A stretch of DNA of 64,000 bases from Schmidtea polychroa (Eukaryota), in assembly GCA_044892525.1 (NCBI GenBank), contig CM097886.1, positions 128,588,001 to 128,652,000 on the forward strand, in the 5' to 3' direction. The position numbers and the translations under genes were made by a program. Within the stretch, counting starts at the first letter, position 1. The number at the start of each line of letters is the position of its first letter. The notes below the pieces were generated by a model. It searched no databases and was not told the origin of the DNA. It saw nothing but the letters and a program-made list of their open reading frames with translations. Shown here in pieces: positions 1 to 51,708 of this stretch.

Positions 1-3000
1 CCACTCTTGTTGTTTCCATTTCCGGATAATTTCACCAAATTGTTCAGGGTACCATACGTACACCCGTCGATATTCTTCAATCGCTTTAACGATTTTTCGT
101 AGGTTTTGAATCCTTTTGCATGATTCGGCTATCCATTTTGCTAGTTCTACCACCGCTCGTCGACGATTTTTCGCCCCGTTTTGTAATATCTCCATCAACT
201 CCTTACATTTTTGTGCTTCCAACAATGTTGCTGCTTCTTCCTCATCTGCGTCGGCGTCTATTGGTAGATGTCCTGAATCAGACACTCTTCTCCTCATCAT
301 ACAGATTCTCGGTTGATTTTCTGGTATGTTCAGTCGTTGGTTCATTTCTTGTTCTGTTTCAACTTCTACTCTGATCTGGATAGCATTGTTTTTCACAAAT
401 TTTGACTGCTCATTCTCAATGTAACTTAGACGTATTAATTTAGGTGTCCCAGAAGCGATATTTTCTGATGTTGTTGGTCGTTGATAGCAGGCGCTCCTTG
501 GATCTGGTTTCAATGTTTCTTTATGCATGTTAAGGCTATCTTTCAATGGTTCGATTGCTATCGTCACTTTTCTGCTAAACGGCCATGGTACCTTGTCGTC
601 ATAATTTCCTTTGCAGATGACGAAGAATGCCGACACATAATTTCCTTTACCTATCCCGTCTCCGTTCGGGTATATTCGCAATTTCATCTTGTACTCACCT
701 AATCCTGAGTAGAACGGTGGACTTACTAATCGTGTGATTTTCTCTTCCTTTGCTGATTTTATCTTTTCCATCCAATTCTCAATTTTCCACGTGAATGGTG
801 CTAACCTTACTGGTTCTCGTATCTCCTCATCTTCTCCTGATGGTAATTCATTTTGGAATTCTTGTGGTAATATATCCTGGTAAGTATCGATCGGTTTCTC
901 TCTTACCCATACTGCTGCGATCTCTTCGGGTATATTATCTATCCAATTTGGTTCCAACTTTTGCTGCTCCCAATCCCATCGAGCTTCACTTTCGATCCAC
1001 ACTTTTTTCCATGGTATCAGTTTGCAATCTTCGTCATTGAAGGCTGCTAGTTTTAGTTTATCATCCTTTAGCCAATGGTTATAAATATCTATTATTCGAT
1101 CCATCTTTGCCCTCATTCCCCATTGGAATCTTTTAATTTGTTGCTCGGTTTTCGTGGCGTTTTTGTGCCCACCAGATGGTTCATCCATCGCGATTATATT
1201 GATGACGGCTCCATCTTCCCAGATTCCTAGTTCGTAAATTACAGTTCGGTCTCCTCTTTCTAGCATGTGCCGGTTGTACATTATTATCACATCTTCGATC
1301 ATTCCATCCTCACTATTTTCTCGAGCTTTTTGGATGATCTCTTGATCTATGATTTGCACTAACTCGTCAACTTGGCAATCGGGATTAACTTCTATTATTT
1401 GTTTCTCTTCATTTGGCAACTTCACCTTTATTTTTATCGTTTCATGCTCGCATTTGGTTCTCTCGTATTCTCCGTATTTAGATATCAATTCTGTCGCTCG
1501 TTTGTCTTCGAATCTCATAATTTCCGTGTCTCGTACGTCTTTAACAAATTGTTTCATTAGTTGTGGCCATCTTTCTCTCAATCTATTAATGTATTTCCTT
1601 GTCTGATCGATAGCTTGTTTGACTAAGATTATTTGGTTTTCTTTCATTATTTTTCGTTCGATCTTTTCCAATTCTGGTTCTACTTCATTGTTAAACACTT
1701 GTTGGATTTTCTTGAACATCTCTGCTACCGAGTCGTCATCCCTGGTTTTCTCTAAGGTTAAGATGTTAGTTTCGTTTGGCCATATCATCGCATCTACCAA
1801 ATGTATGCCTATTTTAACTTTGTAACCATCGACATATAATTGTTTATTTTTATGGCTCGTTCCCATTTTTTCCTGTACCCAGTTGTACAGTTCATCGGTA
1901 TTTGTTCCTTTTAATTCGATAGTCTGTATCTGAATCTCGGGGTGTTGAATGCTTACTTGATATTGATCTGGGCCTGCTTCCTTTAGTTTCTCTTTATATT
2001 TTGTTGCTAAATCTTTCCATGCTGCCGTTATTATACCTCCTTCACACTGGTATACTTGAGTTATAAGTTTTAAGCATTTTCTGTATGTTAACTCGTTGAT
2101 GTAGTTCTCATTTCGCTCTATTTCTGTTACTGTGTCGAGAATTTCCTCGAATATCTCTTCTTCATCTTTTTCTATCATTGATTTCATGTCATCATTTTCA
2201 CTCTCCTCACTACTTTGAGGTGTTTCACTGTTTGGGGGTGTTTTCGGTTCGTTATTTACCTCACTTGACTGAAATAATTCGCCTCCCAGGCTACTCACCT
2301 CACTTTTCTCATCTTCCTGATCCGTCTGATCGCTCCGCATTTGTCTCAGCATGTTTATTTTAGCTTTGGTATGTGGTTCCTTCTTTTCAAACCACTCATT
2401 TTTCCTGAACCAATGCTCTTTCACTTTTTCTTTTATTTGTTCCTCAGTTAATGTAGGATTTTCGTTTTTGATTCTGTCTTCGATTTTTTGTAGTAGTACC
2501 CTCTGAATTCGATTTTTTGTAATTATCTCATTGCTTTTTGGTTCGTCTTTACTCTCATCTCTCTTTTGTCTCCTTTCTTTCTCCTCTTTGGTAAATTCTT
2601 TAATCAATTGTATTTTCTCTTCACTGCTCAATTCTGTTCGTGGATCAATCTCATCTTCTTTTGTCGTTTTTATCTCCTTGTTTATTATCGGTTCACTCCC
2701 GTCGTTGTTAACACACTGCTCCGCAGTGTGCGATTCCTCTTTATTTGTTAATCTCATCATATTTATTCTTCCGGGATTCGCTTCCCGTTGTTTCCATCTT
2801 TCTTGAATTTCTCTGGCTTCCTCGTTTTGTAATCTTTGCCATTCGACTCGTTGCTGATCTTGTTGTTGCTTACTTGGTTGGTTCCGGATTTCCTCGGTGC
2901 TCTGCATCATGTTGATTCGTTGTTGTTGGTTATTAGTCGGTATTCGCAGGATCATATCTTTTAATTGTTCGATTTCCTGCATGAGGTTGATTTGTGTGTT

Positions 3001-4032
3001 CTGAACTGGATTGTTTGATCCTGGTTGATTTGGTTTGGTTCTCATCGTGCATTCTCTTGCCATGTGTCCAGGCTGATTACAATTGTAGCAGGTTCTGGTT
3101 CCTCCTCTGCTCATAGACATCATGGGTCCTCTGCAGACATTTTCCGTGTGGCCTCTTCTCCCACACTTTTGACACATCCTTGCTTTATAACATTCATTGC
3201 TCCAATGCCCTGGTCGTTGGCATATGTTGCACGTTCGATTGTTGATGTCGTTGTTCCTGAAATTATTAGTAAAATTTTGAATATTACCTCCATTGTTTTG
3301 GTTTCTTGTTTGTGGAGTTTTGAACAACTGTTGCGATCCTGGGATGAATTGATTCATTACTGGATTTGCATTATTGACTTGGTTGTTTGTGGTTGTTGCT
3401 GTTGCCGCTGGAGCTGCTGGAGCTGCTGTCATTGCTGCTACTTGTATTGGTGTTAAGTAGGTTTCACATTTGTTAGCGATTTTTAGTGCTTCTTCCAGCG
3501 TCTCTGGTGCTCGGCATCCCAAGGTTGCTCGTATATCCTCTCGTTTCATGCCATCTACGAATACGGCTATTATTTTGTCTTCCGGAACTGGTTGATTTGA
3601 ATCGAAGGCTTCTCGTGCTAGTCGTCTCAATTCGCATGCGTACAGTGCGTTGGATTCGTTATATTTCTGCTTTCGATGCAGAAAGTCTAACATTTTTCGA
3701 TTTCCCTCTTTTTCGGTACCGAATGTTTTTATTAAAAATTCCTTGATCTCTTTCCACGTTCTCAACTTAGTTGCATCACATTTCGCCTCCAAGTATACAT
3801 CTTGGGCGCTTCCCTTTAGATATAGGGGTATTCGTTCTCGTACGACTATGTCTGGCCAGTGACATATCGTAATGTATACTTCGAATTCCTTTATAAACGT
3901 TTCCAGCTGGTTTATATTTCCATCGAATGGCTCTCCTCGAAATTTCTCTCTGAATTCTCCAATGTTGACGTGCACATTACTTGTTTCCGGTGGGTCCGTT
4001 AGCCCTGTTACATTTGGAATTCCGTCTGTCAT
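1..4032 (-). CDS. gag: Gag-cargo polyprotein, 3'-partial (>=1344 aa): capsid-like Gag, 3x CCHC, 2 ubiquitin-like domains, TRAF-type MATH
   Basis: Hand translation shows the frame open from 4341 to 1, with the first ATG at 4032 (MTDGIPNV). Gag core FDGNINQLETFIKEFE...LYLKGSAQDVY...TWKEIKEFLIKTF lies at ~3930-3450. Knuckles CNICQRPGHWSNEC, CQKCGRRGHTENVC and CYNCNQPGHMAREC lie at 3231-3049. MATH PFTWKIENW...VSPPFYSG...YKMKLRIYPNGDGIGKGNYVSAFFVICKGNYDDKVPWPFSRKVTI...FVKNNAIQIRVEV lies at 798-358. Confidence 0.92.
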   Translation of the reverse strand, partial: MTDGIPNVTGLTDPPETSNVHVNIGEFREKFRGEPFDGNINQLETFIKEFEVYITICHWPDIVVRERIPLYLKGSAQDVYLEAKCDATKLRTWKEIKEFLIKTFGTEKEGNRKMLDFLHRKQKYNESNALYACELRRLAREAFDSNQPVPEDKIIAVFVDGMKREDIRATLGCRAPETLEEALKIANKCETYLTPIQVAAMTAAPAAPAATATTTNNQVNNANPVMNQFIPGSQQLFKTPQTRNQNNGGNIQNFTNNFRNNDINNRTCNICQRPGHWSNECYKARMCQKCGRRGHTENVCRGPMMSMSRGGTRTCYNCNQPGHMARECTMRTKPNQPGSNNPVQNTQINLMQEIEQLKDMILRIPTNNQQQRINMMQSTEEIRNQPSKQQQDQQRVEWQRLQNEEAREIQERWKQREANPGRINMMRLTNKEESHTAEQCVNNDGSEPIINKEIKTTKEDEIDPRTELSSEEKIQLIKEFTKEEKERRQKRDESKDEPKSNEIITKNRIQRVLLQKIEDRIKNENPTLTEEQIKEKVKEHWFRKNEWFEKKEPHTKAKINMLRQMRSDQTDQEDEKSEVSSLGGELFQSSEVNNEPKTPPNSETPQSSEESENDDMKSMIEKDEEEIFEEILDTVTEIERNENYINELTYRKCLKLITQVYQCEGGIITAAWKDLATKYKEKLKEAGPDQYQVSIQHPEIQIQTIELKGTNTDELYNWVQEKMGTSHKNKQLYVDGYKVKIGIHLVDAMIWPNETNILTLEKTRDDDSVAEMFKKIQQVFNNEVEPELEKIERKIMKENQIILVKQAIDQTRKYINRLRERWPQLMKQFVKDVRDTEIMRFEDKRATELISKYGEYERTKCEHETIKIKVKLPNEEKQIIEVNPDCQVDELVQIIDQEIIQKARENSEDGMIEDVIIMYNRHMLERGDRTVIYELGIWEDGAVINIIAMDEPSGGHKNATKTEQQIKRFQWGMRAKMDRIIDIYNHWLKDDKLKLAAFNDEDCKLIPWKKVWIESEARWDWEQQKLEPNWIDNIPEEIAAVWVREKPIDTYQDILPQEFQNELPSGEDEEIREPVRLAPFTWKIENWMEKIKSAKEEKITRLVSPPFYSGLGEYKMKLRIYPNGDGIGKGNYVSAFFVICKGNYDDKVPWPFSRKVTIAIEPLKDSLNMHKETLKPDPRSACYQRPTTSENIASGTPKLIRLSYIENEQSKFVKNNAIQIRVEVETEQEMNQRLNIPENQPRICMMRRRVSDSGHLPIDADADEEEAATLLEAQKCKELMEILQNGAKNRRRAVVELAKWIAESCKRIQNLRKIVKAIEEYRRVYVWYPEQFGEIIRKWKQQEW

Positions 4033-5123: not shown

Positions 5124-5433
5124 TGAAGTCTTTTACGACTCCTAGACGCCTGGGCTTTTACACCATTACGCCATATAATCTACTATTACCCATCAACGCT
5201 TTGGTTTGTTAGACCTCCGCGTCGGCATCGGCTTCCGGCCGGTTTAATCAAAATTGAAGTCTTTTACGACTCCTAGACGCCTGGGCTTTTACACCATTAC
5301 GCCATATACTCTACTATTACCCATCAACGCTTTGGTTTGTTAGACCTCCGCGTCGGCATCGGCTTCCGGCCGGTTTAATCAAAATTGAAGTCTTTTACGA
5401 CTCCTAGACGCCTGGGCTTTTACACCATTACGC
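5124..5433. repeat. 131 bp tandem repeat (~2.4 copies) in the retroelement leader
   Basis: The unit TGAAGTCTTTTACGACTCC...GGCTTCCGGCCGGTTTAATCAAAAT restarts at 5124, 5255 and 5386, and the copies are nearly identical. Confidence 0.95.
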
Positions 5434-6840
5434 CGTATTCGCGGTCTTCGGTCCCTGACCGGTTTCAAATGCCCTAAATGAGGTTTCTTCAACCCCCAGA
5501 CGCCTTCGGTTTTAACACCTACTATCGTCCCTACCGCGATTAAATTGAGTTGACAGTTGACTTTCGGGCTAATCAAAAATTCGAGGCTCCTCCTACTCCA
5601 ACTCTTAATCTGCTGAGGCCTCACAACTGGCTCAATTCTTGGCCGCTTATTGAAAAGAGTCTAATACCGGTAACTCTAATCTCATCGCCGTTTCACTGGG
5701 CCTATCGGTACTCGGTGTGGGCATCCGGGTTTTGTACCGATCCCTGCTAGCAATAATCACGAAGAAAAAACATCCTATCTATCAGGATTTAAAAAACACG
5801 GAAATGCCTAATCGCCTTGATCGTGATTCTCAAAAGTGATGAACCAGATCTCCCGACTAGTGAAGCTAAAAGGAAATTGGGTATGCAGTTGACTCTCGGT
5901 CTCCCGCCTCACAACTGGTCCAATCTTGGTTGCCTGTTGAGTACGAGTTCTTTACCGGTTGACTCGCATCTCACAACCGTTTCACTGGGCTCCTTGATAC
6001 TCGGTGTAGGTAACTGGGTCTCTCTCGCTCGCTACCCTTCCGGGTTTTTGTATCAAGTCCCGCTAGCAACTCAAAAAGTGCGCCCAATACTCGGTGTGGC
6101 ATCCGGGTTTTTGTATTGGGTGATCCAGCATCATCAGTCCCTTGGCCGATAATCTCCTGGACACTACAGTCCGGTGGTTAGCCGCTGTACTCGGGTGCCT
6201 CATCACTCGCTAGGGAAAATCATTATTCTCATCTGATTTGAAGTCCAAAAACGGTTTCTTCAAATCCGCAGCTGCTCTCGGATTAAATTTTTAACATTTA
6301 GCGCGCGTTTTTCAATTTTTATTTTATTTTTCTATTTTTATTCACCCTTTTAGTTAGTCCCCGTCTCCCAGACAAAAAAATATAATAATCGCGTTGGTTC
6401 GTTTCCCACAAGTGGTGATCAGTCACTGGACAGAAACTCCCCAACATTTGCGATGGATCCTACTACATTCTCTCATCAGGGTGATCAGGATTTCCCCATC
6501 CGGGCAAGTGTCGTAAGGACGATTCACTTGTCATCCCCTCATTATCGTATCTCTTTATGCCAAAATAACAAACAGGAAGAAAAGAAAATTGGAAATAAAA
6601 ATCGTACTGATCTTAGCGATCAGCTCATTCATACGACTATGATCAGTCCTGCATTCAACTTTGATTTTAGTTCTAATTGCTGTGTTGCTTGTCTATTTAT
6701 TTAACGTATTTTGTGTCCTTTATATGTCTATGTTCATCGTATGTTTTACACCTTTCGGTTGCTATAATGGATTTTTAATATAATTTACTAATTTTATCAC
6801 TTCATATTCATTCACAAGAAATTTATTTGACAACATCTCC

Positions 6841-7323
6841 TTATGGGAGGTATATTACAATTTTCTCTCTAACATTCGTATCGCATACGTTGCATCGTTT
6901 AATTTTCTCTACGCAATTCTCGCAGTAGCATAAATGACCACATGGAATCGTCATTACTCGTATTTCATTGGTTCTGCATATGAAGCATTTTCTAAAATCT
7001 TTAACTTGATGTTCGATTGCTTCTTTAATTTCTTCCTCGATCGTTTCCATTTTTATCATTATCTCCTGCCATTTGATGTTAAATTTGGCATTGTCTAATC
7101 GTAAATTTTGAAGTTGATAAACTCTTTTAGTGGTCAATTCTGCATTAGGTGTCGCTATTTTCATCATTACGCATATTTCCTCAGCTTGCGGTCTTGGATT
7201 CAAGCTCATCTCATCTTGGATTTTTATCAACTGGTCCGCTTTGCGATTTAGCCGTTGTAACGAATTGTGTGTTAAATCTACGAATTTTTCGAGTCTCTTT
7301 GTAATGTAGCCGGTTGATTCCAT
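6841..7323 (-). CDS. Coiled-coil plus C-terminal IAP/MDM2-type C3HC4 RING protein (putative E3 ligase), 160 aa
   Basis: The C-terminus CFICRTNEIRVMTIPCGHLCYCENCVEKIKRCNVCDTNVREKIVIYLP matches the terminal RING pattern of IAPs, including the hydrophobic tail. ATG start, TAA stop, same strand as gag. No BIR domain seen. Confidence 0.88.
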   Translation of the reverse strand: MESTGYITKRLEKFVDLTHNSLQRLNRKADQLIKIQDEMSLNPRPQAEEICVMMKIATPNAELTTKRVYQLQNLRLDNAKFNIKWQEIMIKMETIEEEIKEAIEHQVKDFRKCFICRTNEIRVMTIPCGHLCYCENCVEKIKRCNVCDTNVREKIVIYLP

Positions 7324-8019: not shown

Positions 8020-8037
8020 ATCCCGGCTGAGCCCCCA
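8020..8037 (-). promoter_or_regulatory. Primer-binding site, tRNA-Pro
   Basis: Minus strand reads TGGGGGCTCAGCCGGGAT versus the canonical Pro PBS TGGGGGCTCGTCCGGGAT (16/18). It lies 4 nt from the LTR-terminal CA. Confidence 0.9.
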
Positions 8038-8443
8038 AATTTGTATGGTGGGTTACTGGTGGTTGAATGATTGAGTGCTGTTACCAGCGTAACCCAAAAT
8101 ACAACATTGTTTTTCCGCTTGGTACCCGTTGAGTGATCAACGTTGGTACTGTACCAAGGGTTGAGTACTCGCAAAAAGTGAGCGCATCAAAGCACTATAG
8201 TTGTCGAGTACTCCGTGGGTTCACGGACTACCGATAGAAGGTGTGTGTCCGATTTCTCAGGTCCCTTTATCAAAATTGTTTTCCCAACCTTATGCACAAA
8301 CTCTCATTTCCCAGGCAATCATAAACTGTACTAGTCATTATTTTATCACTACAAAACGTGCAGTATTTTAACAAGGAACATATTATTTGAAGACTACCAC
8401 AATACATAAAAATACTACAAAACACCTAAAACCGAATATAAGT

Positions 8444-8902
8444 TCAAACAGGCTTATTGGTAGGACTGGCCAATTTCGTCGCAGCTGCTAGTGACAAATT
8501 TGCTTGTCGCTCGTATTCGGCCAGTCTAGCTTTCTTCAATTTTTCCCGAATATTTCGGCCTAACCGCTTTCTTTTGGGTTTCTCTTTCGCGGCCGGGGGG
8601 TATATTGCTGCTAGTTCCACGGTCAACGGCCGGATTTGGCTTATGGCGGCTCCGTGAACTACTTGTTCATTTCGCTCGGTTTCTAGCGCGCGGAGCTGGA
8701 GCTTCAGTGCCCGGATCTCCATCTGATCCTGCGCGGCTTGAGTCTGCAGTTGAAGGACCTGCGCCACCTTCCTTTTCATATCCTCGGGACTAAACCAGGT
8801 GCTTTCTAGTTCCCGGCACCGTCCCTTGAGCTTGTCTACTCGTATGCGGAGCTCCTCGGACTGTTTTTGAGCTTCTGCCCTATCTCTTCGCAGATTTTCC
8901 AT
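8444..8902 (-). CDS. LTR-encoded coiled-coil protein with TWFSP motif and basic NLS-like tail (ORF-B)
   Basis: GC-rich ORF, ATG at 8902 (the track starts at GTG 8914). LESTWFSPEDMKRKVAQVLQLQ and PKRKRLGR align with YEGTWFSPPQMKEERSKVLRLE and RKRKRLTR in ORF 48191-48952. Confidence 0.8.
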   Translation of the reverse strand: MENLRRDRAEAQKQSEELRIRVDKLKGRCRELESTWFSPEDMKRKVAQVLQLQTQAAQDQMEIRALKLQLRALETERNEQVVHGAAISQIRPLTVELAAIYPPAAKEKPKRKRLGRNIREKLKKARLAEYERQANLSLAAATKLASPTNKPV

Positions 8903-9124
8903 TAGTCTGAACACTAGATAAATTCAGCGATTATATTCTTGCAGCATACTATTCATTCAATTATAAAATAAAATCAATATTATAAATAAACATAGTTTCG
9001 GATGTTAAGCACGCAATACACAAGATGATTTATTAAAAGGACTGAAATAATTATCACTAAAATCAAAGTTTAATAAAATCGCAACTGAATGTTAATTTGC
9101 AAAAAACAAAATTTTGACGATGAG

Positions 9125-9490
9125 TCAGTTCAGTCGCTTGCGAGGCCTTCCCCTCTTCCGCGGGGTTGCCTCGGCCTCTTCTAGGTCCTCCACGGTTTTT
9201 CCCTCTTTTTCTGCTTGGATTTGTAGCTCGATCTTCTTGAGTCGCATCTGAGCTGCTTCTACCTCGATGGCCGCTCGGTCGCGGGCCTCTTGCAAAAAAT
9301 CGTTTGTGGGCTCTGTTTTTACCCACGCCGGAGCGTCCGGCTCCGGCCCACTCCTGATTACTGGGCCAAAGTTGTCGAGGTCCAAACCCCGATTCCAATC
9401 ATGGATACGGTGCCATATGTACCGTGTACGGAGTCTGGTAAGCATCTGTCGGTCGGCTTCTTCGTGGCTATCGCTGTCAGAGTAGGACAT
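9125..9490 (-). CDS. LTR-encoded 121 aa protein with C-terminal AT-hook (ORF-A)
   Basis: GC-rich ORF in an AT-rich context with a helical middle, ending TPRKRGRPRKRLN (AT-hook core RGRP). Confidence 0.72.
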   Translation of the reverse strand: MSYSDSDSHEEADRQMLTRLRTRYIWHRIHDWNRGLDLDNFGPVIRSGPEPDAPAWVKTEPTNDFLQEARDRAAIEVEAAQMRLKKIELQIQAEKEGKTVEDLEEAEATPRKRGRPRKRLN

Positions 9491-9991
9491 TTCTACAAAA
9501 TAATAATCAAGCCCCTCTATACTGATTGAGATACGACGTCAACCACAAGATTTTGTTGACCCTTTTTCCCTTTAAAAAAAAAATATTTTATTTTAAGACT
9601 ACCATCTATAAGTTTAGGAGCAGTGGAATAAGATTTCCTACTTTATCAAAACAAACACACAAAAAAATTTTCGTCAAAATTCGTTTGTTTAAATTAATCA
9701 TTTCCATTCAAAATTTTGTTTACCACTGAGTAGTAATTTTAATTACTATTTATAAATTTTAATTTACATATTAATAAAATGTGAATTTTTTCCTTTTTGA
9801 TCGTCATTCTTAGGCCACTAAATTCGGGCACGCTGGGGCGACAGGTACTAGCAACGAACTAAGCTCTTCGTCTGCTTACCTTTCCTTCGGTTGTGCTCGT
9901 TATGAGTGGTTTGCTCTGCATACAAGTAATTTATTTAATTTGCTAATTTCTAAATTTCCAGGTGATCGATATCGGATTGGGATATCGATTT

Positions 9992-10360
9992 TTTGTAGTT
10001 AACCGTAATAATACCAATAATAATAACAATGAAATAACGATACTAATAATAATAATAATAATGATAATAATAATATTAATAATAGCAATGATAGTAATAA
10101 TAATAAGAATAATAATAAATTTTAATAATGGTAATAATAATAATACTAATAATAGTAATAACAAGAATAATAATAAATTTTTATAATGGTACTGATAATG
10201 ATGATAATAATAATAATGCTAATTATGATATTCATAATAATGATAATAATAATATAATAATAATAAGAATAACAATACTAATAGTAATGACAATGTTGAT
10301 ACTGCTAATAGTAATAACAAGGGAAATGATCAGGATTATGATAACTATAATTTTATAATC
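9992..10360. repeat. Degenerate (AAT)n microsatellite inside the LTR
   Basis: Long interrupted AAT/GAT run; it accounts for the poly-N/poly-I spurious ORFs. Confidence 0.9.
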
Positions 10361-12570
10361 CCATGTTTTAGAATTATAAATTCATGTTTTATAATTTATA
10401 CTTTGATAATTTTCGATTTATAATTTAAAATTTTTCCATTTAGGGATTTACAATCTTGTAATTTATAATTAATTTCATATTTTGAAATTTATACATTCAT
10501 ATTTTATAAGTTATAATTGCTTAACTTATAATTTATAAGTTTATAATCTAAAATTTATACTTTTGTAATTCGTATTTTCATACTTTATAATTTGAAATTT
10601 TTAGTCGACGGAATATACTTCTTACAACTTCCTTCTATGATCAACATTGTTTTCCGCAGTACTTACAGATTTCCTGGTCCTATTTGTGGATTAAACTTCA
10701 GGGTTCTAGCGCGTCTATCGCCTATCTGTAACCAATCCTAAGTTGATTTTTATACGAAAATTGTTTACTACTATCTCTGATCAGACTTTCTCCATTAACA
10801 ATTTACATTTTCAGGATCGACGTGGTTTGTACCTAGCTATCGTAATTATTTATAACTTATAGTTTTATAGTTAACAACAAGAACATTACAACTAAGAGCC
10901 TACACATTTACAAACATTTTAAAGTGGGAGCTAGATTTAAAATGTCTATCTTTACTCGGAATCAACATATCTAGATCAAGTTATACCTGTACGTATGCCG
11001 AATATCTCTCTTTTTTCTATTACTTTATCAAAGATCCTTACTACAAAACCTAGTTCGGCATATGTCTAAGTATAATTGAAATTACCATTATGAATCAACT
11101 AGCTACATTAATGTGAGTGTAGAATTGTGTAATTTTAGGTACGAGCTCTACTCAAATTAGAACCTTAGTGTAGAGTTATTGTTCAGGATTTTAAGTGTTG
11201 AGTTTAATTGTATATTACGCAATGAGTCGGGAAGAATATTGCTTTCATGGCCTCACTGTGACCACGTCCACAAACCTTAGTGTTGTGTGCTAAGTCAACC
11301 ATTTACGGCTGACCTTAAATAAATACGAAGAGTCAGGCGGAGGGTTTCCTCGACCTAACTCCATGGCAGGACCATGAAGTAGTTCGACCTCCGGCTGACC
11401 CGAACAAAAGGAAATCATATAATAAATATCACTATAATAACGATAATGCGTGTCTGCATGTCTTGTTAATAACGATTTTAATAAATTGGATGCAGGACTG
11501 AACAACGACGCAGGAATACCAGTACGCCGTTGATCACTCATACATCGCAAAAAAAAATTTTAAGCAAAAATAAATTTAAAATACCATCTATATAATTAAA
11601 CAATTAATATACAAATAAAGATCAATGCTTACTATCGATTTTGGAAATTTTGTCACAAAAATTTGGCATAAAAGTGATTGATTGTGACTGAAACGTGTCA
11701 GTATATATACCTATTTAGTACACGTGTATGTATTGATGCATTAAAACAAACTCGAATTCTTTTTATTCCAGAATTTTCTATTTAGCGATTTTGCTATTTT
11801 TAATGACAATTTTTGTGCCATAATTTTTGTTTTTATTTTTATATTTTTATTTTTTAATTATTTTTCGTTAATTTGCCGTCCATGATGGATTTGGAACGGT
11901 TCCAGAACATTCTATTTTATTTTTAATTTAATTTTTATTTTAACTGATGTTTTGTGAATTTCTTTTAAAGATTTATTATTTTTAATACTAATTTATTTAT
12001 TTTCCTTAACTTTTGTTGTTCTAGATAACTTTTGTGATGGTCATCGCCATTTTTATAGAATGTTCTGGGTTTTTCTGGAATGTTTTACTGTTTTTATCGT
12101 CTTTTAAGTTATTCGAGTCTGTTTTTTGTAACCCTGTGTTTATTTGGTTATTTTTGAGTTAGATTTTTGCATCACTTCTTGCTTTTGTATAATTTTGTTT
12201 AATTTCTTTGTTTATGTTTTTGTTGCTTTCTCCTTTAGTTAATATTGTTTATTTGGTGTAGGTTTTAATATTTAACTATACTTGGTGCTTTTTTACTTGC
12301 TGTGTACCTACGCGTTTCAGTCACAATTAGTATTTTGGGTCTAGAAATCAGTTCTAGCCCAACATAAATTAAAAATGAAAATTATATGGAGAAATTTTGA
12401 AATTGAGTTTTAACAAGAAAGGCTGGTGAAAAACTGGGCCGCATGAGCCTGCTATGCGGTGGCTTGTAATTTCTAGTTTTGCCACTCACAAGAAACCTTT
12501 CCTGCTTGGTTCCCATCCCAATTGCTGATTCCCATAGAATTGAAATCTTCTAAATGTTAAGATTATTTAA

Positions 12571-17995: not shown

Positions 17996-19272
17996 AAAAT
18001 GAAAGGAAGGAAGGAAGAAGCATTATCAAGTTTCAAAAGAGTTTGAACAGGCGCAATGTTGACCAATCAAATTTTATCCTACAAACATCAAACATGAGAA
18101 TTATCTTATTGTAAAGCAAAAATTAATAATAAAAATTTTAAATTATTTAAATAATTAATTTAATTTAAACAATTATAATAATAATCGACTAAATTAATGT
18201 GTCCAGTTTTAACTGGAAATGAAAAATAAAATTGGTAAAATAATTATTATTATAAATATTTTATTAATCTGGGATCCAAATCATTATTATAAATATGTTT
18301 AAGGTTGACAGACTCGTGTAAATTATGATCTGATAAGCTTAGTGGGATCGCAATCCACCGCAAACGGTCATCTTTATTTGGAGTTAAATTTAAATGTTTT
18401 CTCATAGCAATAACTTCTGGATCCTCATTAAGGTTCTTGGTGCTTTCATCGTTAGATGTGTCCATCAAATTGATTCTAGGAGTTTCAATAACCAACGATT
18501 GACTGACAAAATAGCCAGGATTTTTATCATTGACATTAGATCTTGCATTTCTATATAATTCATTGACCATTTTATACCATCCGTTACTCGCACTAATCTC
18601 TCGGATTTGTTCTTCACTGTGTCCCGATTTCCTCATTTTCTGTTGAATTAGTTCATTACTATCCTTATCGGAAGGGTGTAAATCTTCATACAATTCTTCA
18701 ATGTAAAAATAATTTGGAATTCGTTTGGGAGTTTTAGTGTTTTTTAATTTCAAATGGGAACTTACCGCAATTGGAACTTTTTCTTTGAATTTTCTGGCTT
18801 TTATTACTAAATTTTTAATTTTAGGTTTTATACAATTGTTATTCGAATTATCTGATAATTTCTTTGATCTTTGCAGTGAAATGATTTTAGTACTGGCCTC
18901 ATTCATGAAATGTTCTGGAGCCTTATCTTTTACATTTTCATTCCAACTTTTATTACTACTACTTGTGGATATTATTTCAGGTGTTTTATTGAAATTATTT
19001 ATATTTAATATTTTAATCGGTTGACCAGGTCTCGGTTTGGCTGCATAAACTTGTTGAAAATTATGTTTTTTAATCAAGGGGAGACCAAATGCGGGTCTGT
19101 AACATGAATTTAGGGGATGAAAATTAATGTTAAAGCCCAATTGATTTTTGTTAATTAAAATAGTTTCAGTAAGCATTTTAATTTTTAAAATTTTCAAATA
19201 ATTGTACAAAATTGATGCAAAAAATTAATATATTAATTTTATTAAATTTTGATTGGTTTAAAAGAATTTTAA
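17996..19272 (-). repeat. Left arm of ~1.28 kb inverted duplication
   Basis: Reverse complement of 25122-26398; paired coordinates sum to 44394. Confidence 0.95.
18250..19209 (-). CDS. Orphan 319 aa basic protein, copy 1 (TTG at 19209; shared ATG at 19176)
   Basis: A long intact intronless ORF in very AT-rich DNA; differs from copy 2 by two residues plus the start codon. No domain recognised. Confidence 0.65.
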   Translation of the reverse strand: MYNYLKILKIKMLTETILINKNQLGFNINFHPLNSCYRPAFGLPLIKKHNFQQVYAAKPRPGQPIKILNINNFNKTPEIISTSSSNKSWNENVKDKAPEHFMNEASTKIISLQRSKKLSDNSNNNCIKPKIKNLVIKARKFKEKVPIAVSSHLKLKNTKTPKRIPNYFYIEELYEDLHPSDKDSNELIQQKMRKSGHSEEQIREISASNGWYKMVNELYRNARSNVNDKNPGYFVSQSLVIETPRINLMDTSNDESTKNLNEDPEVIAMRKHLNLTPNKDDRLRWIAIPLSLSDHNLHESVNLKHIYNNDLDPRLIKYL

Positions 19273-19849
19273 AATTTTTTCAATTAATATTTTTAAAATT
19301 TAAAATAAAAACTCTAGATAAAAGATTTATTTATTATCAATTTTAAAAATTTTGTTGTCATATAATTATAAATTATATTGCTGACTACCAAAGCTTTCCC
19401 TAACAATATTGGTTCCAATTTGATGCCCTCCTCTGCCAGTTTTCAGTTTCACTAATGTCATATTAATTTAAAAATAATTATTTTCTCATTGTTCGTCACT
19501 TTACCTTTACTTTATTGTTCTCATTATTTTTAAATTATTACATATTTTACAATTAAATAAATCTATCAATATAGATTTTAAAATTTTTTTTATAAATATT
19601 CAATAATAATGATTACATTTTATTTTTAAAAATTAATCAATTAATAAATTGATAATTTATAAAATCATATTTTCTCTAAAAATGGAATGCGATTGGGCGA
19701 ACCAATCAAGCTCGTATCGCGATGAATCTGAATTTCGAATATTTATTAAAATGTATATAATATATTAATACTCTGCTCTCTTCTTTTTTGAAAATATTAA
19801 AAGTGCTACATGTCTAACGCGGGAAACTTTCCGGGACAATTTTAAGAAG

Positions 19850-22084: not shown

Positions 22085-24420
22085 AGTAACATTTTCATTA
22101 TAAGTAACACGTTATTTTCAAATATATATTTATTATAAAATCTGAATATTTAAACAATATATCAATTTAAATATCGTCACTCTTCCCTTCTTTAAGAACT
22201 GTGATACTCTTTCAGCCATTCAATTCTTCTGCATCTTTTCCCATCTGGATGTTCTAGTTCAACTTGGTGTTCCGTTGGAAAACCAAGAATCTTTACAGGA
22301 CCTTCGAACAAATTACCATGTTTTGATCTCTTATGTGGATTCATCTTTACTAGAACTCTTTGACCCACCTCAAAATGCATCTCTTGATCTCATTTTATCT
22401 GCCGCTACCATAACATTATTCTGTGCTGTCAATAATACTTTTTCTAGATTAAGATCTATGAATGAATTCTTTCCATGTATATTGACCTTTCTTCCAAATA
22501 GTATTTCCATTGGCGAAAATCCCGTAGAATTCTGTGTTGTTGAGTTTAAGGAATATTCAATTTTTGGTATAATGTCGTCCCAACACCTTCCAGTTTGACC
22601 ATCACTCAAAAATGTCACGATCATATCACGAACTGTTCGTATTACTCGTTCTGCTAAACCATTAGACTTATGATCATATGGCGAAGAATATATCCATTCG
22701 ATGTTAAAATTATCAACTAGGCCTTTGATTTGACTTCCCTCGAAAACCTTACCTCTATCCGAAACAATGTAAGCTGGTTTACCGAATTTGTATTTCCAAT
22801 TGTGTAAAAGTACACGATATACAGTCTTTTCATCTTGGTCGGAGTAGGCGTTAAACTAACCATCTTGCTGAACTGATCGATTATTAATACCAAATAACGG
22901 TTACGGTTTCTGGTTTCATTCATATGAGCAATATCGATTACGATTTGTTCCATCGAATTCATTATAACCCTAGGAATTAAATATTCAGCTGTTTTACTTG
23001 TCAAAACTTTCCTTCTCATGCATATATCACATTTTTTTATAATATCTCGTATATCGGTTACCATGTGTATCCAAAAGAAATAATCGTTCATATAATTTGT
23101 TGTTTTCTTAACACCTGAATGACAGAGTTCTTTGTGCATATGCTATACGACTTGTGACGCTATCTTCTGCGGAATTATTATCTTTTGCTTATCATCATTT
23201 ACTATTAATAACATATTGTCTTTTACCAATATCTGATCCAATCTTTTGAAATAAGGTGACAGTATCCAAAATAAAGTAATCGACCTTATTTGGAAACGCC
23301 AAGATTGGTGACTCGATAATACTTGTTTAAGTCTAGGGACGAATAAACTGAAGATCCGAACAAAGAATCGAATATTGTTTGAGGATCTGCTATTGGAAAA
23401 CTGAATTTTTCAGTAACTTCATTAACCTTCCTAAAATCTTGACACATCCTGATTTGCTAGTTAAATATATTTTCAATCTGATTGGTCGATAGGATATGAT
23501 CCGTCTTTCTTACCTACCACGACCGTAGGTGAGTTCCATTGGCTGTGGCATTTCCTGATAATGCCCATTTTTAATAATTTCATAATCATATCGTCCACTT
23601 TTGATTCCATCTCCATTGCAATGCGCCTATGATTTTGAATAATTGGATTTCCAGAAGTTTTTATAGTATGTGTAACCAAACTAGTACAACTAAGATCAAA
23701 ATCTGATGCCATGAAGATCGTACTATACATGGTTACTAACTCCACCAGTTTTGGGTCTGAATTTGGTCCAAAAACATCCAGCGTTTTTTTACATCGTTCG
23801 GTATCACTGTAACGAACACCAACCGTATCTGAATCTATTAATCCAACTGATGTATCTGGCACAAGTTTTATTTTAAAAGCTAAAATCAAATTCATTCCAC
23901 CTACAAAACTTGGACTTATATCCCTAACCACAATTACATTCACTTTCTGACACAATCGAAGTTGTAAAGTCACCTAAGCGTGATATCGTCTTATTTCCAA
24001 ACGCCCCCTCTGAGCGCCATATCTACCGGTTTTAAAACTGGACTGCCACACTTCTTTTGTGCGTCATTAAAGGCCATCCATAATTCTTTTGCGTCTCCAT
24101 GCAATAACAAATCGAATGCTGCTCCTAAATTGAGCGAATTTATCGTCACAAATTCTTCAATAGATACAAGTCAGTCCTTTGCATTTTCTTCTTTTCCTCC
24201 AAAAAACTTCTTTTTCACTGGATAAATTGAATTTTGAATATTCTTTGGTAAAGATTCCACAATTTTCTGCCTTTGCAGTGATCTCGTCAGAGCTGCGATT
24301 TCGGCGTGGTCGCCAGTAACATTTTCATTATAAGTCATTAAACTAACACGTTATTTTCAAATATATATTTATTATAAAATCTGAATATTTAAACAATATA
24401 TCAATTTAAATATCGTCTCT
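22085..24420 (-). mobile_element. Internally deleted Ty3/Gypsy element with ~100 bp LTRs
   Basis: Direct repeats at 22085-22181 and 24315-24420 (AGT...ACT type termini). PBS TGGCGACCACG (tRNA-Arg-like), PPT AAAGAAGGGAAG and AATAA on both flanks. Contains gag and protease fragments, the RT start (IRKCHSQWNSPTVVVGKKDGS) and integrase HKELCH...CDIC plus the rve core. Most of RT/RNase H is missing. Confidence 0.9.
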
Positions 24421-25121
24421 AATAATAATAATAATAATGAATAATTCTTTGATAAAATAAATGTTAAAATATTAAAATTTAAAAAACTATCATTTATTAA
24501 TAAATATACGAAAAATTTTTTTTTACAACTTTCAATTTTTCATTTATACATGTAAAAAACTAAACAGAATTTTTATTTTAAATTTATCCTAAATAATAAG
24601 TGTTTTTATTAAAATTACTTTTTCTTTCTGAACTCCTTGTTTTTAAAACAAGCACTAATAATTAAGAAATTTGAATAAACTAATATAAATTTTTTTATCA
24701 AAGTTAAACAAACAATGTTCAAGAAAATTAAAAAAACATATATGCGTTCAGCATAGATTTCATTTATTCATTCAACCAATCAAGTCCGGCCCGGGGTCGG
24801 CAGTTCAGTCTATCGTTTGGGGCGCTAGATTTTGTAGGACTCCGTGATACTCCAAAAAAGCGCAATGATGACTTCAAATTATCAAACAATGTTGTTAAAA
24901 AGTATAACCTAAGTCCTGAATACAACATACTTATTTTCTATCTATCATTATTTGAAATATGAAAATTATACTTTTAACCTTCTATGAAAGCATTAAAATA
25001 TTTTCTTCTAAATTAATTTTTCATCACTTTAAATTTAATGCAATTAATTTTCATTTAAAATTTTTAAGATTTAATATTTTTAAATTTAAAATATCAAAAT
25101 TTAAAGTTTGAAAATATTTAT

Positions 25122-26398
25122 TAAAATTCTTTTAAACCAATCAAAATTTAATAAAATTAATATATTAATTTTTTAGCATCAATTATGTATAATTTTTTGA
25201 AAATTTTAAAAATTAAAATGCTTACTGAAACTATTTTAATTAACAAAAACCAATTGGGCTTTAACATTAATTTTCATCCCCTAAATTCATGTTACAGACC
25301 CGCATTTGGTCTCCCCTTGATTAAAAAACATAATTTTCAACAAGTTTATGCAGCCAAACCGAGACCTGGTCAACCGATTAAAATATTAAATATAAATAAT
25401 ATCAATAAAACACCTGAAATAATATCCACAAGTAGTAGTAATAAAAGTTGGAATGAAAATGTAAAAGATAAGGCTCCAGAACATTTCATGAATGAGGCCA
25501 GTACTAAAATCATTTCACTGCAAAGATCAAAGAAATTATCAGATAATTCGAATAACAATTGTATAAAACCTAAAATTAAAAATTTAGTAATAAAAGCCAG
25601 AAAATTCAAAGAAAAAGTTCCAATTGCGGTAAGTTCCCATTTGAAATTAAAAAACACTAAAACTCCCAAACGAATTCCAAATTATTTTTACATTGAAGAA
25701 TTGTATGAAGATTTACACCCTTCCGATAAGGATAGTAATGAACTAATTCAACAGAAAATGAGGAAATCGGGACACAGTGAAGAACAAATCCGAGAGATTA
25801 GTGCGAGTAACGGATGGTATAAAATGGTCAATGAATTATATAGAAATGCAAGATCTAATGTCAATGATAAAAATCCTGGCTATTTTGTCAGTCAATCGTT
25901 GGTTATTGAAACTCCTAGAATCAATTTGATGGACACATCTAACGATGAAAGCACCAAGAACCTTAATGAGGATCCAGAAGTTATTGCTATGAGAAAACAT
26001 TTAAATTTAACTCCAAATAAAGATGACCGTTTGCGGTGGATTGCGATCCCACTAAGCTTATCAGATCATAATTTACATGAGTCTGTCAACCTTAAACATA
26101 TTTATAATAATGATTTGGATCCCAGATTAATAAAATATTTATAATAATAATTATTTTACCAATTTTATTTTTCATTTCCATTTAAAACTGGACACATTTA
26201 TTTAGTCGATTATTATTATAATTGTTTAAATTAAATTAATTATTTAAATAATTTAAAATTTTTATTATTAATTTTTGCTTTACAATAAGAAATTCTCATG
26301 TTTGATGTTTGTAGGATAAAATTTGATTGGTCAACATTGCGCATGTTGAAACTCTTTTGAAACTTGATAATGCTTCCTTCCTTCCTTCCTTTCATTTT
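25122..26398 (+). repeat. Right arm of inverted duplication
   Basis: See left arm, 17996-19272. Confidence 0.95.
25185..26144 (+). CDS. Orphan 319 aa basic protein, copy 2
   Basis: Intact ATG-to-TAA ORF; near-identical inverted copy at 18250-19209. Confidence 0.7.
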   Translation: MYNFLKILKIKMLTETILINKNQLGFNINFHPLNSCYRPAFGLPLIKKHNFQQVYAAKPRPGQPIKILNINNINKTPEIISTSSSNKSWNENVKDKAPEHFMNEASTKIISLQRSKKLSDNSNNNCIKPKIKNLVIKARKFKEKVPIAVSSHLKLKNTKTPKRIPNYFYIEELYEDLHPSDKDSNELIQQKMRKSGHSEEQIREISASNGWYKMVNELYRNARSNVNDKNPGYFVSQSLVIETPRINLMDTSNDESTKNLNEDPEVIAMRKHLNLTPNKDDRLRWIAIPLSLSDHNLHESVNLKHIYNNDLDPRLIKYL

Positions 26399-37400: not shown

Positions 37401-40400
37401 TTAATCACTAGCAATATAATATTAACTGAGAATATAATGTATAAACATATGATGATGTATCCATTTAATGCCGATATGAAATATATGATTGTATTTTCGC
37501 TATTATTTCGGTGAACCTGGGTTTAACTTTCGGTACAGTTGCAATTTGCAGCTCTGGCTCTAGATTTCATATAGTTTCAATTCCAACTACAACTGACAAA
37601 CTTATTCAGTGATGGGATTCAACCGAGCAGGCTGTTAATTTATTTAAATCTTCTATTTGTTACCTTTACCAACACAGCAGTTTTCTCACAGGGTGCGATG
37701 GACGGTTGGTCAGCGGTTTAAGAACAAAAGTGATACATGCTCTCTAGTTTAAATCGATACTTATTTTTTTATTATTTAGGGGATCACACAACATTTGCAA
37801 TATATTATGTGGAATATCAATTTTAAACTATTACGACATGAACGATCACTTATCTAGATTCATTTTGTAAGTTGTATTATAGTTAGCCATCTACGTACCT
37901 GCTTTCATAAATATTCTTCCACTTTAACCAACATTGGCAGTGAAACTGTTTTTCAGAACGCCACATAAATGGAAAAGCAAATATAGATAAAACTAAACTA
38001 TTCAATCATTAGAATATAGTCCAAAAAGGCGCGGTCGAAAGTGAGAAATATTAAAACGCTCATTGTAATCTCAAGATGATTTGATGTATTTTGCCGTTCT
38101 ACATTTACTGCATTACCCAATTAGAATTATTTATTTAATTCTATTCTCACTCGTAGGCCAGAGATCTCAGCAACCAACTGGCAGCTAATGTTGGCCCTAC
38201 AGTGCATATCCAAGGTGCACAACATGCACAAATTGTGCATCACGGAGGCAACGCATATCTTGTACAAAGCACAGGTCGACTGGAGGATGAATCTCCTAAC
38301 CTTTCTCACGCTACCAAGAGTAATCCAGTAACGGTATGAATTTTGAACTACATTTTCCTTATCCAATTAAACTTTAAAGATGCAGTGGCTTTACGATAAT
38401 TATGAAACTGCGGATGGGGTCAGCTTGCCTCGTTCTACACTGTATAATCATTACCTTCAACATTGCCAACAAGAGAAATTAGAGCCAATGAATCAAGCAT
38501 CATTCGGAAAATTGATTCGGTCCGTGTTCTTCGGGTTGCGAACTCGTAGGCTCGGAACGAGGTTAGTCGTTTGGAAATTGTCGAAATGTTCTATATCGAT
38601 CATTGTATATTCTAGAGGCAATTCCAAATATCATTATTATGGGATCCGAATCAAACCGAACTCTTTGTTGAATCATTACGTAGAAGATCAAACGTTCGCA
38701 ATGCGACAATACCCGTCATTTCATCGACAAAGGTTTATTGATAAGTTTATCGGTAATGATTATCATTGTGGCACTCATTTTAGTAATGATAACGATTTCC
38801 ACTGGCGGGCCAAATATTCCAGTAACGGATTGAATTATGGCGGTGTCAGTGGGGTCGGTAGTGGAGGAGCGGGTATCAATAACAATTCTGTCATCACCAG
38901 CACCAGCAGCAGCAATCCTACCAGTGGCGGCACAGGCAATAACAGCTCTATCCTCATCATGAACAACGCCACTGGTGGTAGCAATATGGCTGACTGTAGC
39001 AACAATCAGCACAGCAATTACCTCGGGGAGAGCAGCTCTGCCTTGCCGAATCTCAGTGATATCATTGCACGAGCTGAGTTGGATACGTTGATCGAGGAAG
39101 ACTGCCACAACGAGGGCGTCTCACTGGAGGACATAAACATCTTCTGCCAAATGTATCTCGATCACAGTGATGCTGTTCTCAGTGCTGTTGTTTATCTCAA
39201 TTTCAAATACATCGAAACGCTATGGCAAGAATTTTGGCGTACATCATCAAAGGTGATTGTAATGATTGATTATTGATAATAATAATTAATTTAATCAATA
39301 AATTAAATAATTAACTAATTGATTGATTTAGTCAATAAATAGAGAAAATACCTGTAGTCAAAATGTGGATGAAAGAAATTAAAAAACAAATCAAAGGCGA
39401 GAGAAAATATTATATTACTTAATAAACGGAATAATGAGTAATTTAGTCAATAAATCGAAAAACTAATTAATTTAATCAATAAATGAATTAATCAATTTGG
39501 TCAATAAATGGAATATTATATGTATTTAGTCAATAAATAGAGAATAATATTGATCTATAGTCAAAATTAAGATAAAAGAAAATTTAAAAAACATCAAATG
39601 TGAAAAATAAGTTATTTTATGTAAAAATTAATTAATTTAATCACAAAATGGAATAATTATTTATTTTAATCACTGAAATTAATAATCAATTAAATAAATA
39701 TATATCATAGTTATACTGAAAAACATTGAAGTACCATACGAAATATTTTATATAATTCAATATAATTTGTAACGCTAAATATTCTGGTTCATCTGATCCA
39801 CCAAATTGCCCATTTGACGAGCATTATCTAACTGAAACCTACTTTTCAATATTGTCTTCATCGACCTAATCTCTCAATTTAAATATATATAAACATTACA
39901 AGCTCTGTTATACCCAGTGCAAATCTCAATAGTAGACTACTTTCGAGTGTACCAGTGTTGCAATGTACCAGGGAAAGTATGCAATAGAGTTGAATCAGCA
40001 ATATTGTATACTTAACTGGCACGAAGAGAAATGATTGTTGATGTCAAAACAGTAATTAACATTTATATCGAATCCTTGAGTGCGTTTGGTTGTGGAATCT
40101 AATATGAATAACATGAAATCCTATTAAATTGAAACGAAAATAGGTCCCATCTGAATGTTGAATGAACCTCCATTGACAGCAAATAGAAATGGAAAAAGAC
40201 CTGACTTAGCGATAATGCCAAAAAGATTCGCATCATTGTCAAGAACGATGTGGATTAATTTAATTCAATTTTATCCAATGTTTTTCATCCTAAATTTCTT
40301 TTCAGCCGACCGCCAATCATTTCGAAGAGAAATTGTCGAAAGCTCAACTTCATAGACTTTTGAAAATTCCACAAATTCAAAGCTTTCTTCAACTTTTCGA

Positions 40401-50600: not shown

Positions 50601-51708
50601 GGTTTTATAAAACGATTGTTATAACAAAATTTACTTGTCTGGCGACCACGCCGTCTGAGTCTCGAATATGATGCCGTTCCACAATCATCACGATCGTTCG
50701 ATCATCTCTATTGCTATAAATCTAACTTCGTCCCGATTTTCAATGTCACTTCTAGCCGCCATCCTCGTGGCTTCTTCCACGGATTTATTTGATTTCCCGC
50801 ATCATATTGGAGTCCCAGACGACATCGTCGCCAGCACCATAGAGAGAGAGAGGAACATCTTTCGAAAATTAAAACATTTATTATACTAAAAGAGTTTATT
50901 TAATATCGAATTCATAGAAATATTGAATATCATCATCATAAAAGGCATTTAAATCAATCACCATACTTACTAAATAATATCCTTCGAGAGTGTCAAAAAC
51001 TGGTAAATGTTCGATAAATCGTTTTCCTTTTGGCTCCGCTAGATACTAGTAGTCGATTGTGTTTTCGTTGGATCGTAGTCGAAATGGTGTTCAAGATGCT
51101 GTAGAGTAGCGATTAAAAGTGGTCAAAATTAAAAAAATTTTTACCTGTAGAGTAGCGATTAAAAGTGGTACTCTACAGATTTTTCTCTTTCGTTATATAT
51201 TATTCTTCGTCCAATCAGGACGCGCCTTGTTTGTGATATTTTTTATTTATTATTATTTAGGGTTTTTTTATTGTAATGTGTTGGGTTTTAATAACTTTTC
51301 CTATTTGTATTAATATTTTATTTATTTTAGTATTTTTTTATTATTTTCCTCCCGTTTTTCCTGCGCGTTTATTGTCATTTTATCATAATATAATTCTTGT
51401 TTTAATTCGCCTATACCTTTATTTGAGGATTTCTGTTTTATTTTCTTAAATTTCTCGTTTATTTCTTACGTTTTTGTTATTTTATGTTTTTTCCTTTTCC
51501 TACCATGTGTGTTGGGTAATTTCACCTTATTTCGCCTTATGCATTCTATTGTTTTATTAGTTATTTTTATTTCTTTTATATTCTTATTTCTTTTATTGTT
51601 ATCTGCTTTAGTTATTCTTATATTTCTCGGGATTTTATTGAAAATTTGTTTTATCCTATTTATTCGTTCTTAGCCCGATTTTCGACACTCTCGAAGTTTA
51701 GCCCAACA
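47652..51708 (-). mobile_element. Solo LTR (4057 bp) related to the LTR at 8042-12363
   Basis: Perfect TGTTGG...CCAACA termini and 4 bp ATAT on both flanks. The minus-strand start TGTTGGGCTA is shared with 12363, both have an A-rich first ~500 bp, and the homologous ORF is at an equivalent position. No PBS or internal region adjacent. Confidence 0.85.
48191..48952 (-). CDS. LTR-encoded TWFSP-family protein, 253 aa
   Basis: Intact GC-rich ORF with CFSC, a coiled coil, TWFSP, a Pro-rich linker and RKRKRL. Homologous to 8444-8902. Confidence 0.8.
   Translation of the reverse strand: MTTPINTEKILRPCFSCADKNADIAQLHLYIGALKKRIDLYEGTWFSPPQMKEERSKVLRLEHCRDSLLEESRCQRLTIKAQSEALHKVYTEAELAKRVREFPVIEKTNVFPLHHQVSKPTTTSCQGHGSCLPPIPAPILSGSQPVVGGPTDPILDPILVAPVVTPHTENHPSSRKRKRLTRAEKNQKRRDAMAALEASLSVAQFTIKEISSNHSIPSKEIFRIIPAEGIKYMSDHRLPVDIDAMIAEGEGFP

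Follow-up and report, generated by a model that had tools for sequence, protein, structure and literature searches.

Evidence for a selected accessory gene family inside the LTRs of Burro-type giant Gypsy elements in Schmidtea polychroa

To our knowledge, LTRs are taken as non-coding save for a few genes that overlap U3. MMTV sag, HIV nef and foamy virus bel/bet lie in or run into U3, 5′ of the transcription start, and are read from the side of the 3′ LTR. Rev and Rex of retroviruses are not LTR-encoded; Rev is a short helical hairpin, and a small basic oligomer made from fully spliced RNA is the usual answer of complex retroviruses to the export of unspliced RNA.

Several described systems of Gypsy-type elements come close to the genes reported here; statements about the papers that we cite refer to the parts of their text that were available. 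The C. elegans Gypsy element Cer1 depends on CERV, the product of a spliced mRNA, to export its genomic RNA (PMC10309623). In the Drosophila MDG1 group, sORF1 is a short, selected, nuclear accessory ORF located 5′ of gag (bioRxiv 10.1101/2025.03.14.642691). The env start codon of springer-subclade insect ERVs is completed across a splice junction, the upstream exon contributing AU (PMC12992720). The planarian elements Burro and GYPSM1 are longer than 30 kb, with an internal region of ~ 25 kb and one giant polyprotein that contains three CCHC knuckles, MATH, an env-like fusion domain between gag and pol, PR-RT-RH-IN and ankyrin; they also carry BIR, BCL2-like and accessory ORFs, a cargo of apoptosis and ubiquitin type (PMC6431247). 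Burro is silenced by planarian PIWI (PMC8532177).

We analysed a window of 64 kb, by which we mean the whole stretch of DNA, that contains two LTRs of this kind. All genes and signals of LTRs and elements given below with window coordinates are on the minus strand. LTR A is a 5′ LTR of 4,319 bp (8046–12364) with the ends TGTTGGG..CCCACCA and the TSD TAAA/TAAA. Its 3′ LTR lies 29,841 bp away and is 100% identical; 14 of 15 such LTR pairs are spaced by 29.7–30.2 kb. The 3′ end of LTR A was set by the point at which 5′ and 3′ copies diverge (15 pairs, with the PBS following one copy and unique DNA the other). Spacing and LTR add up to 34.2 kb with multi-kb LTRs, and by the layout described in PMC6431247, LTR A belongs to a 34-kb Burro-type Gypsy element. 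LTR B is a solo LTR of 4,057 bp (47652–51708; ends TGTTGG..CCAACA; TSD ATAT/ATAT) from a sister Burro lineage. It lies ~ 2 kb downstream of a host RFX transcription-factor gene and in the opposite orientation (plus strand, 38380–41192 onward to ~ 45450, with RFX DNA-binding and BCD domains). The window also holds a 1,170-nt inverted repeat (18104–19273 / 25121–26290, 97%), each arm of which has an ORF of 308–319 aa of no known family; it encloses decayed Gypsy integrase and RT-like frames (22717–23895) and an 80-nt direct repeat at 22102 and 24341.

Eight nucleotides behind LTR A is a PBS complementary to tRNA-Pro(TGG) (8020–8037), a sequence present in 1,058 copies genome-wide (control, 0). 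The spacer between LTR and PBS (8038–8045) is 8 nt long in both A and B types; the usual spacer is shorter. The tRNA-Pro(TGG) genes, which encode the primer tRNA of the elements, form a tandem array with 475-bp spacing (L256, G000:C1:130.90–130.95 Mb), and their 3′ motif has 1,555 matches genome-wide. We saw no clear polypurine tract before the 3′ LTR. Outside the LTR, a leader ORF (6841–7323) encodes a C3HC4 RING protein (Pfam zf-C3HC4_3, E 1.3e-11) with AG directly before the ATG, and between this ORF and gag is a 131-bp tandem repeat of ~ 2.4 copies (5124–5438, 98–100%). The giant polyprotein starts within the window (1–4032) with Gag, including three CCHC knuckles, followed by MATH, and continues beyond it; read separately in three pieces, its open frames are 1,344, 2,666 and 677 aa long. 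The internal Pfam domains are Gag with three CCHC, MATH, a viral fusion glycoprotein (E 2.6e-68), protease, RT, RNase H, integrase and ankyrin. A 3′ accessory cluster (L032:882–7823, minus strand) encodes a TRAF-like protein (zinc fingers and MATH), an IAP (BIR and RING) and four more ORFs of 153–533 aa without clear family.

Length, polyprotein domain order, BIR and accessory ORFs are alike here and in Burro/GYPSM1, whereas the BIR here is in a separate 3′ ORF together with RING, unlike in the account in PMC6431247. No Pfam match to BCL2 was found at E 0.01 in the element pieces. The available part of that account (PMC6431247) describes no LTR-internal ORF, splicing from an LTR donor or pol-less derivatives. 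In the literature searched, which included the available text of PMC6431247, PMC8532177, PMC11410931 and PMC13238120, we found no report of LTR-internal Burro genes; Repbase or the primary Burro paper may already annotate them. The available text of PMC13524379 mentions neither Burro nor planarians.

The preliminary description of this DNA had proposed that the two LTRs, although unlike at the DNA level, each carry an intact ORF in the same sense near the 3′ end and that the two proteins are related. ORF A (8444–8913, 156 aa if a splice builds its start codon; the open frame 8444–8902 has 152 aa) stops 398 bp before the LTR end, and ORF B (48191–48952, 253 aa, with YAG immediately 5′ of the ATG) stops 539 bp before it. 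Comparison of the LTRs by blastn gave a single 23-nt match (E 0.05) and none at E 1e-4. Alignment of the protein profiles gave a match of 96.7% with E 3.7e-10 over 81 ungapped columns, and BLASTP of ORF A against ORF B found 15 of 37 residues identical (E 6e-7), so that each part of this proposal is confirmed. Of the motif that had been put forward for the family, TWFSP..MK...VL.L, T-W-x-x-P is invariant in the A/B alignment, but the rest is not. What had been overlooked are the probable spliced exon with its junction-built start, a second LTR gene at 9125–9490 and the Burro-type host element.

Coiled coils inflate profile scores, a point in favour of the reading that the ORFs are non-functional by-products, either GC-rich open frames or unrelated coiled-coil look-alikes. 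As a control for this bias, we translated the window, internal pieces of the element and 80 further loci in six frames, which gave 5,474 ORFs, among them other coiled-coil frames of the same element, and ran HMM searches on these. With an HMM built from A types only, full-length B-type ORFs ranked right behind the A types (E 7e-10 to 1e-5); the reverse search with a B-type HMM agreed, and the matches formed two collinear blocks. This reciprocal ranking above other coiled coils argues against look-alikes, as do homologues in gene models of other genomes. In a search of 1.84 billion proteins, the HMM had 20 matches, 19 of them with the same hinge-and-coil block. Most of these outside homologues are fused to unrelated host domains, as gene-prediction programs would produce by merging exons of LTRs with host genes, and the ten that we looked up have no informative names.

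Selection on the coding sequence, which the preliminary description had deduced from the conservation of the proteins, is borne out by the substitution rates. In pairwise NG86 comparisons with the window copy, dN/dS of ORF A was 0.07–0.21 in six diverged pairs; four other pairs were saturated, and two near-identical ones gave 0.35 and 0.44. ORF B gave 0.08–0.17 in seven pairs, with 13 more saturated. These pairs share one reference, the window copy, and values at dS above ~ 1.9 are rough. Among 30 close copies, dN/dS of ORF B was 0.36, as expected when neutral change after insertion is mixed in. The LTR ORF is almost certainly a real gene under purifying selection; values far below 1 at saturated synonymous sites largely refute the by-product reading, which we regard as very improbable.

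A second gene in LTR A, ORF C (9125–9490, 121 aa), is preceded by an acceptor-like TAG (9493–9495). Its dN/dS was 0.10–0.16 in four diverged pairs. The C-terminus is AT-hook-like, with a motif around an RGRP core in nine of ten aligned copies; the best Pfam AT_hook match had E 0.056, with hits in four of seven members, below the cut-off. ORF C is tandem-duplicated in one LTR (L103:4451–5450) and frameshifted in L100, L123 and L124, with ORF A still open in L100 and L124. A weak ORF C-like match in B2 LTRs (E 0.9–5) was rejected as coding since the block is conserved in all frames.

The ATG at 8902 had been taken as the start of ORF A. It is present in only four of 30 close copies and is TTG in the other 26, although the TWFSP half upstream is conserved, and the next in-frame ATG would remove the conserved TWxxP half. 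Eleven bases 5′ of this ATG is a predicted acceptor YAG|TG (8914–8922), invariant in all A-type copies inspected: 13 of 13 full LTRs, 11 PBS loci, which partly overlap with these, and 23 copies of the most distant A lineages. The 20 nt 5′ of it diverge. At the other end of the LTR, ~ 660 bp in, is a TATA-like box (11702–11709) that marks the predicted promoter and is kept in 13 of 13 ORF-A LTRs. It is followed by an initiator-like motif, the predicted start site (11684–11693), identified with the initiator consensus, and by a predicted donor A|GTAAG (11631–11636), so that exon 1 would end in A. All 13 ORF-A LTRs have A at the donor −1 position, where eight of nine sister LTRs without ORF A have G, a difference that, like the pol difference below, stems from one or two lineages rather than from independent events. 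The conserved donor and acceptor suggest that splicing over 2,719 nt builds an A|TG start codon and a protein of 156 aa, a junction-built start that the predicted ORF A would have in common with springer-type env (PMC12992720). ORFs B, C and RING likewise follow AG, and AG|ATG is found in 30 of 30 close copies of ORF B. B-type LTRs have their own predicted TATA and donor 0.4–0.6 kb from the 5′ end (in the solo LTR, TATA at 51193–51199 and donor GT at 51143–51144), and the spacing is the same in four B1 and in three of four B2/B3 representatives. An ATG in exon 1 was rejected as a common start: some A types have it in the reading frame of the junction, but in others it is stopped or absent. Trans-splicing of a spliced leader to ORF A was also rejected, as a leader ending in AUG, which we presume to be its form, would place ORF A out of frame.

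Transcript evidence came from assembled contigs. In run X6, which we guess to be RNA, one contig stops at 11684 with a tail of 22 A; we found no such A-run in the genome. This poly(A) end adjoins the predicted start site, and a conserved AATAAA was absent from the region around the LTR 3′ end, a pattern that points to a very short R and a U5 of ~ 3.6 kb. That the poly(A) end comes from one contig, in a run of guessed RNA status, speaks against this U5 model. No splice joints with the predicted intron ends were present in contigs of six runs, five guessed to be RNA and one other, and contigs of run X1 (guessed RNA) cross the spacer between ORFs C and A unspliced. In X1, ORFs A and C are covered more deeply than the predicted intron, but depth of contigs is no basis for ranking the parts of a gene. 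These observations would suit an unspliced gene, transcribed from an internal promoter, whose ORF A begins with the invariant GTG or a later ATG, the LTR being an ordinary long U3 or R. We consider this improbable: the A before GTG, which follows a pyrimidine tract and occupies a synonymous position, is invariant across saturated lineages, the donor −1 base is A exactly in those LTRs that have ORF A, and AG also precedes ORFs B, C and RING. Judged from these sequence signals, the gene is probably spliced and located 3′ of its promoter.

The nuclear accessory role that the preliminary description had put forward as a hypothesis is plausible. This arrangement bears on the proposed analogy with foamy and complex retroviruses, which is only partly apt. 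As with sag, nef and bel/bet, the coding sequence is duplicated in both LTRs. Unlike those genes, ORFs A and B are 3′ of the predicted TATA, start site and donor and of the one poly(A) end; for ORF A, these signals are 2.7 kb upstream, so that it would lack the U3 placement of sag and nef, and transcripts of the ORFs would arise in the 5′ LTR or in a solo LTR.

Between donor and acceptor, a conserved non-coding block (11103–11409) is common to ORF-bearing and ORF-less A-type LTRs and is a candidate cis element. It is conserved in all frames, and RNAalifold predicts hairpins with weak covariation (one two-sided change). Rfam had no match in the window, this block included; elsewhere, an Rfam match to the mir-753 precursor (L095:4655–4715, 63.2 bits) was found at a B2 element, ~ 0.8 kb outside the start of its LTR.

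The placement of the gene family in LTRs holds up across the genome. The distance from ORF to LTR end is fixed in 30 of 30 close copies of A and 30 of 30 of B. The preliminary description had raised the question whether homologues always lie in LTRs; this was found for 40 of 53 distant copies, which have a known LTR end downstream (for two of the 40, the placement rests on matches of 33–35 nt), while the 13 that could not be placed are old, mostly decayed B-like copies. No A/B homologue was found in the internal pieces examined, except for matches in neighbouring LTRs. Among the first 30 PBS sites listed, 11 LTR ends have an A-type ORF, 10 a whole or partial B-type ORF and nine neither. We also took 80 of the first 100 listed PBS sites, picked for diversity and not at random, with 6.5 kb upstream of each. 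An A/B match within 1.5 kb was present at 12 of 23 A-type ends, 10 of 12 B1, 11 of 11 B2/B3 and one of two other ends, and at none of 32 short LTRs (1.5–1.8 kb).

Presence of the ORF goes together with that of pol. All five ORF-bearing elements that we checked (the window element and four others, of A, B1, B2 and B3 types) have env-like, RT and integrase domains, and full elements with LTRs of the solo-LTR (B) type carry them as well; these domains are absent from all nine ORF-less elements checked, five A-type sisters and four with short LTRs. In eight of these nine, a 3′ LTR follows 10–13 kb in, with 99.7–100% identity over ~ 400 bp, and such near-identical LTRs indicate that the ORF-less elements are young and non-autonomous. 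The joint absence of pol and ORF, seen in one or two lineages, fits a factor supplied in trans. Two abundant kinds of pol-less Burro derivative keep a gag-like frame (L227–L236, L243–L251, L254–L255), and the short-LTR kind accounts for 32 of the 80 PBS loci. LTR genes and pol also differ in their divergence. Between the window element and L167, RT has pS 0.125 and pN 0, and ORF A has pS 0.73 and pN 0.41; between B2 and B3, pS is 0.14 for RT and 0.90 for ORF B. In both pairs, divergence of the LTR gene far exceeds that of RT, so that old LTR alleles appear to be present on a shared backbone.

AlphaFold2 models ORF A as two long helices broken at TWFSP and followed by a third, basic helix (pLDDT 82, pTM 0.35); the model of ORF B has the same parts plus a long disordered linker (pLDDT 60). 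The layout of ORF B is an N-terminal CxxC, a hinged coiled coil, a Pro-rich linker, the basic helix and an acidic-hydrophobic tail whose character is conserved across B1–B3. The basic helix has 7–11 K/R per 17 residues in 34 of 34 A/B proteins and is helical in both models. Its patch in the window copy is Lys-rich, with four Arg among 10 basic residues, and four outside homologues have 10–12 Arg in this helix. A nuclear export-signal pattern occurs in 12 of 13 A and six of 21 B proteins (none of 11 B2/B3), and also in 25–32% of shuffled controls.

Searches for named relatives of the proteins gave little. Pfam has no family for the A/B proteins, and Pfam REV matched none of 18 of them at E 1; one of the 20 outside homologues matched REV below the cut-off (E 0.0013, 19.1 bits against 22). 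PDB sequences included no specific relative, only two coiled-coil fusions at E 0.5–0.7. The ESM Atlas returned no family for ORF A or ORF C, Foldseek against BFVD and PDB no specific fold, VIA-align only generic coiled coils (best Z 7.0), and a word-indexed protein search with ORF B or the alignment as query no matches. The proteins are a real accessory family without named relatives, in an unusual place, the LTR; the element type itself is known.

Tentatively, we favour the reading that this small coiled-coil LTR protein, likely made from spliced RNA, acts in trans as a Rev/CERV-like export factor for unspliced element RNA. A strong 5′ donor with several acceptors, as predicted here, would mean that the element needs a route to export unspliced RNA. 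No genomic copy of the junction of exon 1 with exon A was found; this and the intron in both LTRs indicate that the packaged and copied RNA must keep the LTR intron. Going by the conserved motifs, the promoter would lie ~ 0.5–0.7 kb into the LTR, followed by a short first exon, and a splice over ~ 2.7 kb would, in A-type LTRs, join A to TG and create the start codon. With poly(A) addition beside the start site, as in the one contig, the genes would come to lie in a U5 of 3–5 kb; the 5′ LTR or a solo LTR would express them, and the 3′ LTR would hold no more than a copy. Fully spliced early RNA may yield the protein, which could oligomerise through its coiled coil, bind element RNA through the basic helix and permit export of the intron-retaining genomic RNA, whose LTR intron would be needed to rebuild the LTRs.

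By the description in PMC10309623, CERV is likewise an accessory protein of a Gypsy/Ty3 element with a spliced mRNA (predicted here), a helical zipper and a basic localisation motif; the genes here differ in being 150–270 aa long and wholly inside the LTR. With HIV Rev and HTLV Rex (role as given in PMC10309623), the likeness is that of a small, predicted oligomerising basic-helix protein from predicted fully spliced RNA, and some homologues here have an Arg-rich run; unlike in Rev/Rex, there is no significant sequence match and no family-wide export signal. sORF1 is the nearest Gypsy analogue 5′ of gag, but its RNA is unspliced or polyadenylated early, it is depicted outside the LTR, and a helix-turn-helix is predicted for it (bioRxiv 10.1101/2025.03.14.642691).

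Several features speak against an export role. The Lys-rich patch of the window copy could be a plain nuclear localisation signal, the export-signal pattern is not family-wide and is frequent in shuffled controls, the long coiled coil is unlike the short helical hairpin of Rev, and the acidic-hydrophobic tail of ORF B and the AT-hook-like motif of ORF C point to DNA and transcription. These last two features favour a different function for the same gene structure, the main rival to export: in a Tas/Tax/Tat-like role, the protein would transactivate transcription from the LTR promoter or counter its silencing. It would do so as a dimer formed by the coiled coil, with a basic helix that binds DNA or serves localisation and with the AT-hook protein ORF C as partner. 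That the tail is kept in character across B1–B3, that gene and promoter share one LTR module swapped or diversified independently of pol, and that Burro is silenced by planarian PIWI (PMC8532177) would suit such a role. However, ORF A has no acidic tail, the Arg-rich homologues are more like RNA binders, and the first 700–780 bp with the promoters are 84–88% identical when ORF A is ~ 41–44% identical, which argues against tight coevolution of protein and promoter; we rate this function as somewhat unlikely. A target in the host cell or the particle is distinctly unlikely in our estimation. The protein would then pair, through its coiled coil and with dominant-negative effect, with a nuclear or nucleolar protein of the host, in keeping with the several apoptosis and ubiquitin regulators of the element (IAP, TRAF/MATH, RING; PMC6431247), with structure searches that give generic coiled coils only and with a rapid turnover of LTR alleles that fits host conflict. 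Yet no homology to a host protein or family appeared in the searches run, and the invariant TWxxP hinge and the basic helix recur in all lineages.

Extending the export reading, one can speculate, with some doubt, that the Burro LTR is a self-contained, exchangeable cassette of a U3 of 0.5–0.7 kb, a very short R and an intron-containing U5 of 3–5 kb that encodes the Rev-like protein and, in A types, the AT-hook protein as well. Each solo LTR would then be an expressible gene, LTR alleles would be swapped onto a common gag-pol, pol-less derivatives would use the protein in trans, and strong-stop DNA would be several kb long.

A selected, spliced gene in U5, if this is what the LTRs contain, would be a different design from the U3 genes: copied to both ends of the element, surviving in solo LTRs and expressed from the element's first exon. 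How multi-kb strong-stop DNA is made would then become a question. In public databases, LTR exons are also ending up as parts of host gene models. If the export reading is true, Gypsy elements would have a second, apparently independent Rev-like factor, and Burro, a dominant repeat of a regeneration model organism, would gain a control switch like that of complex retroviruses.
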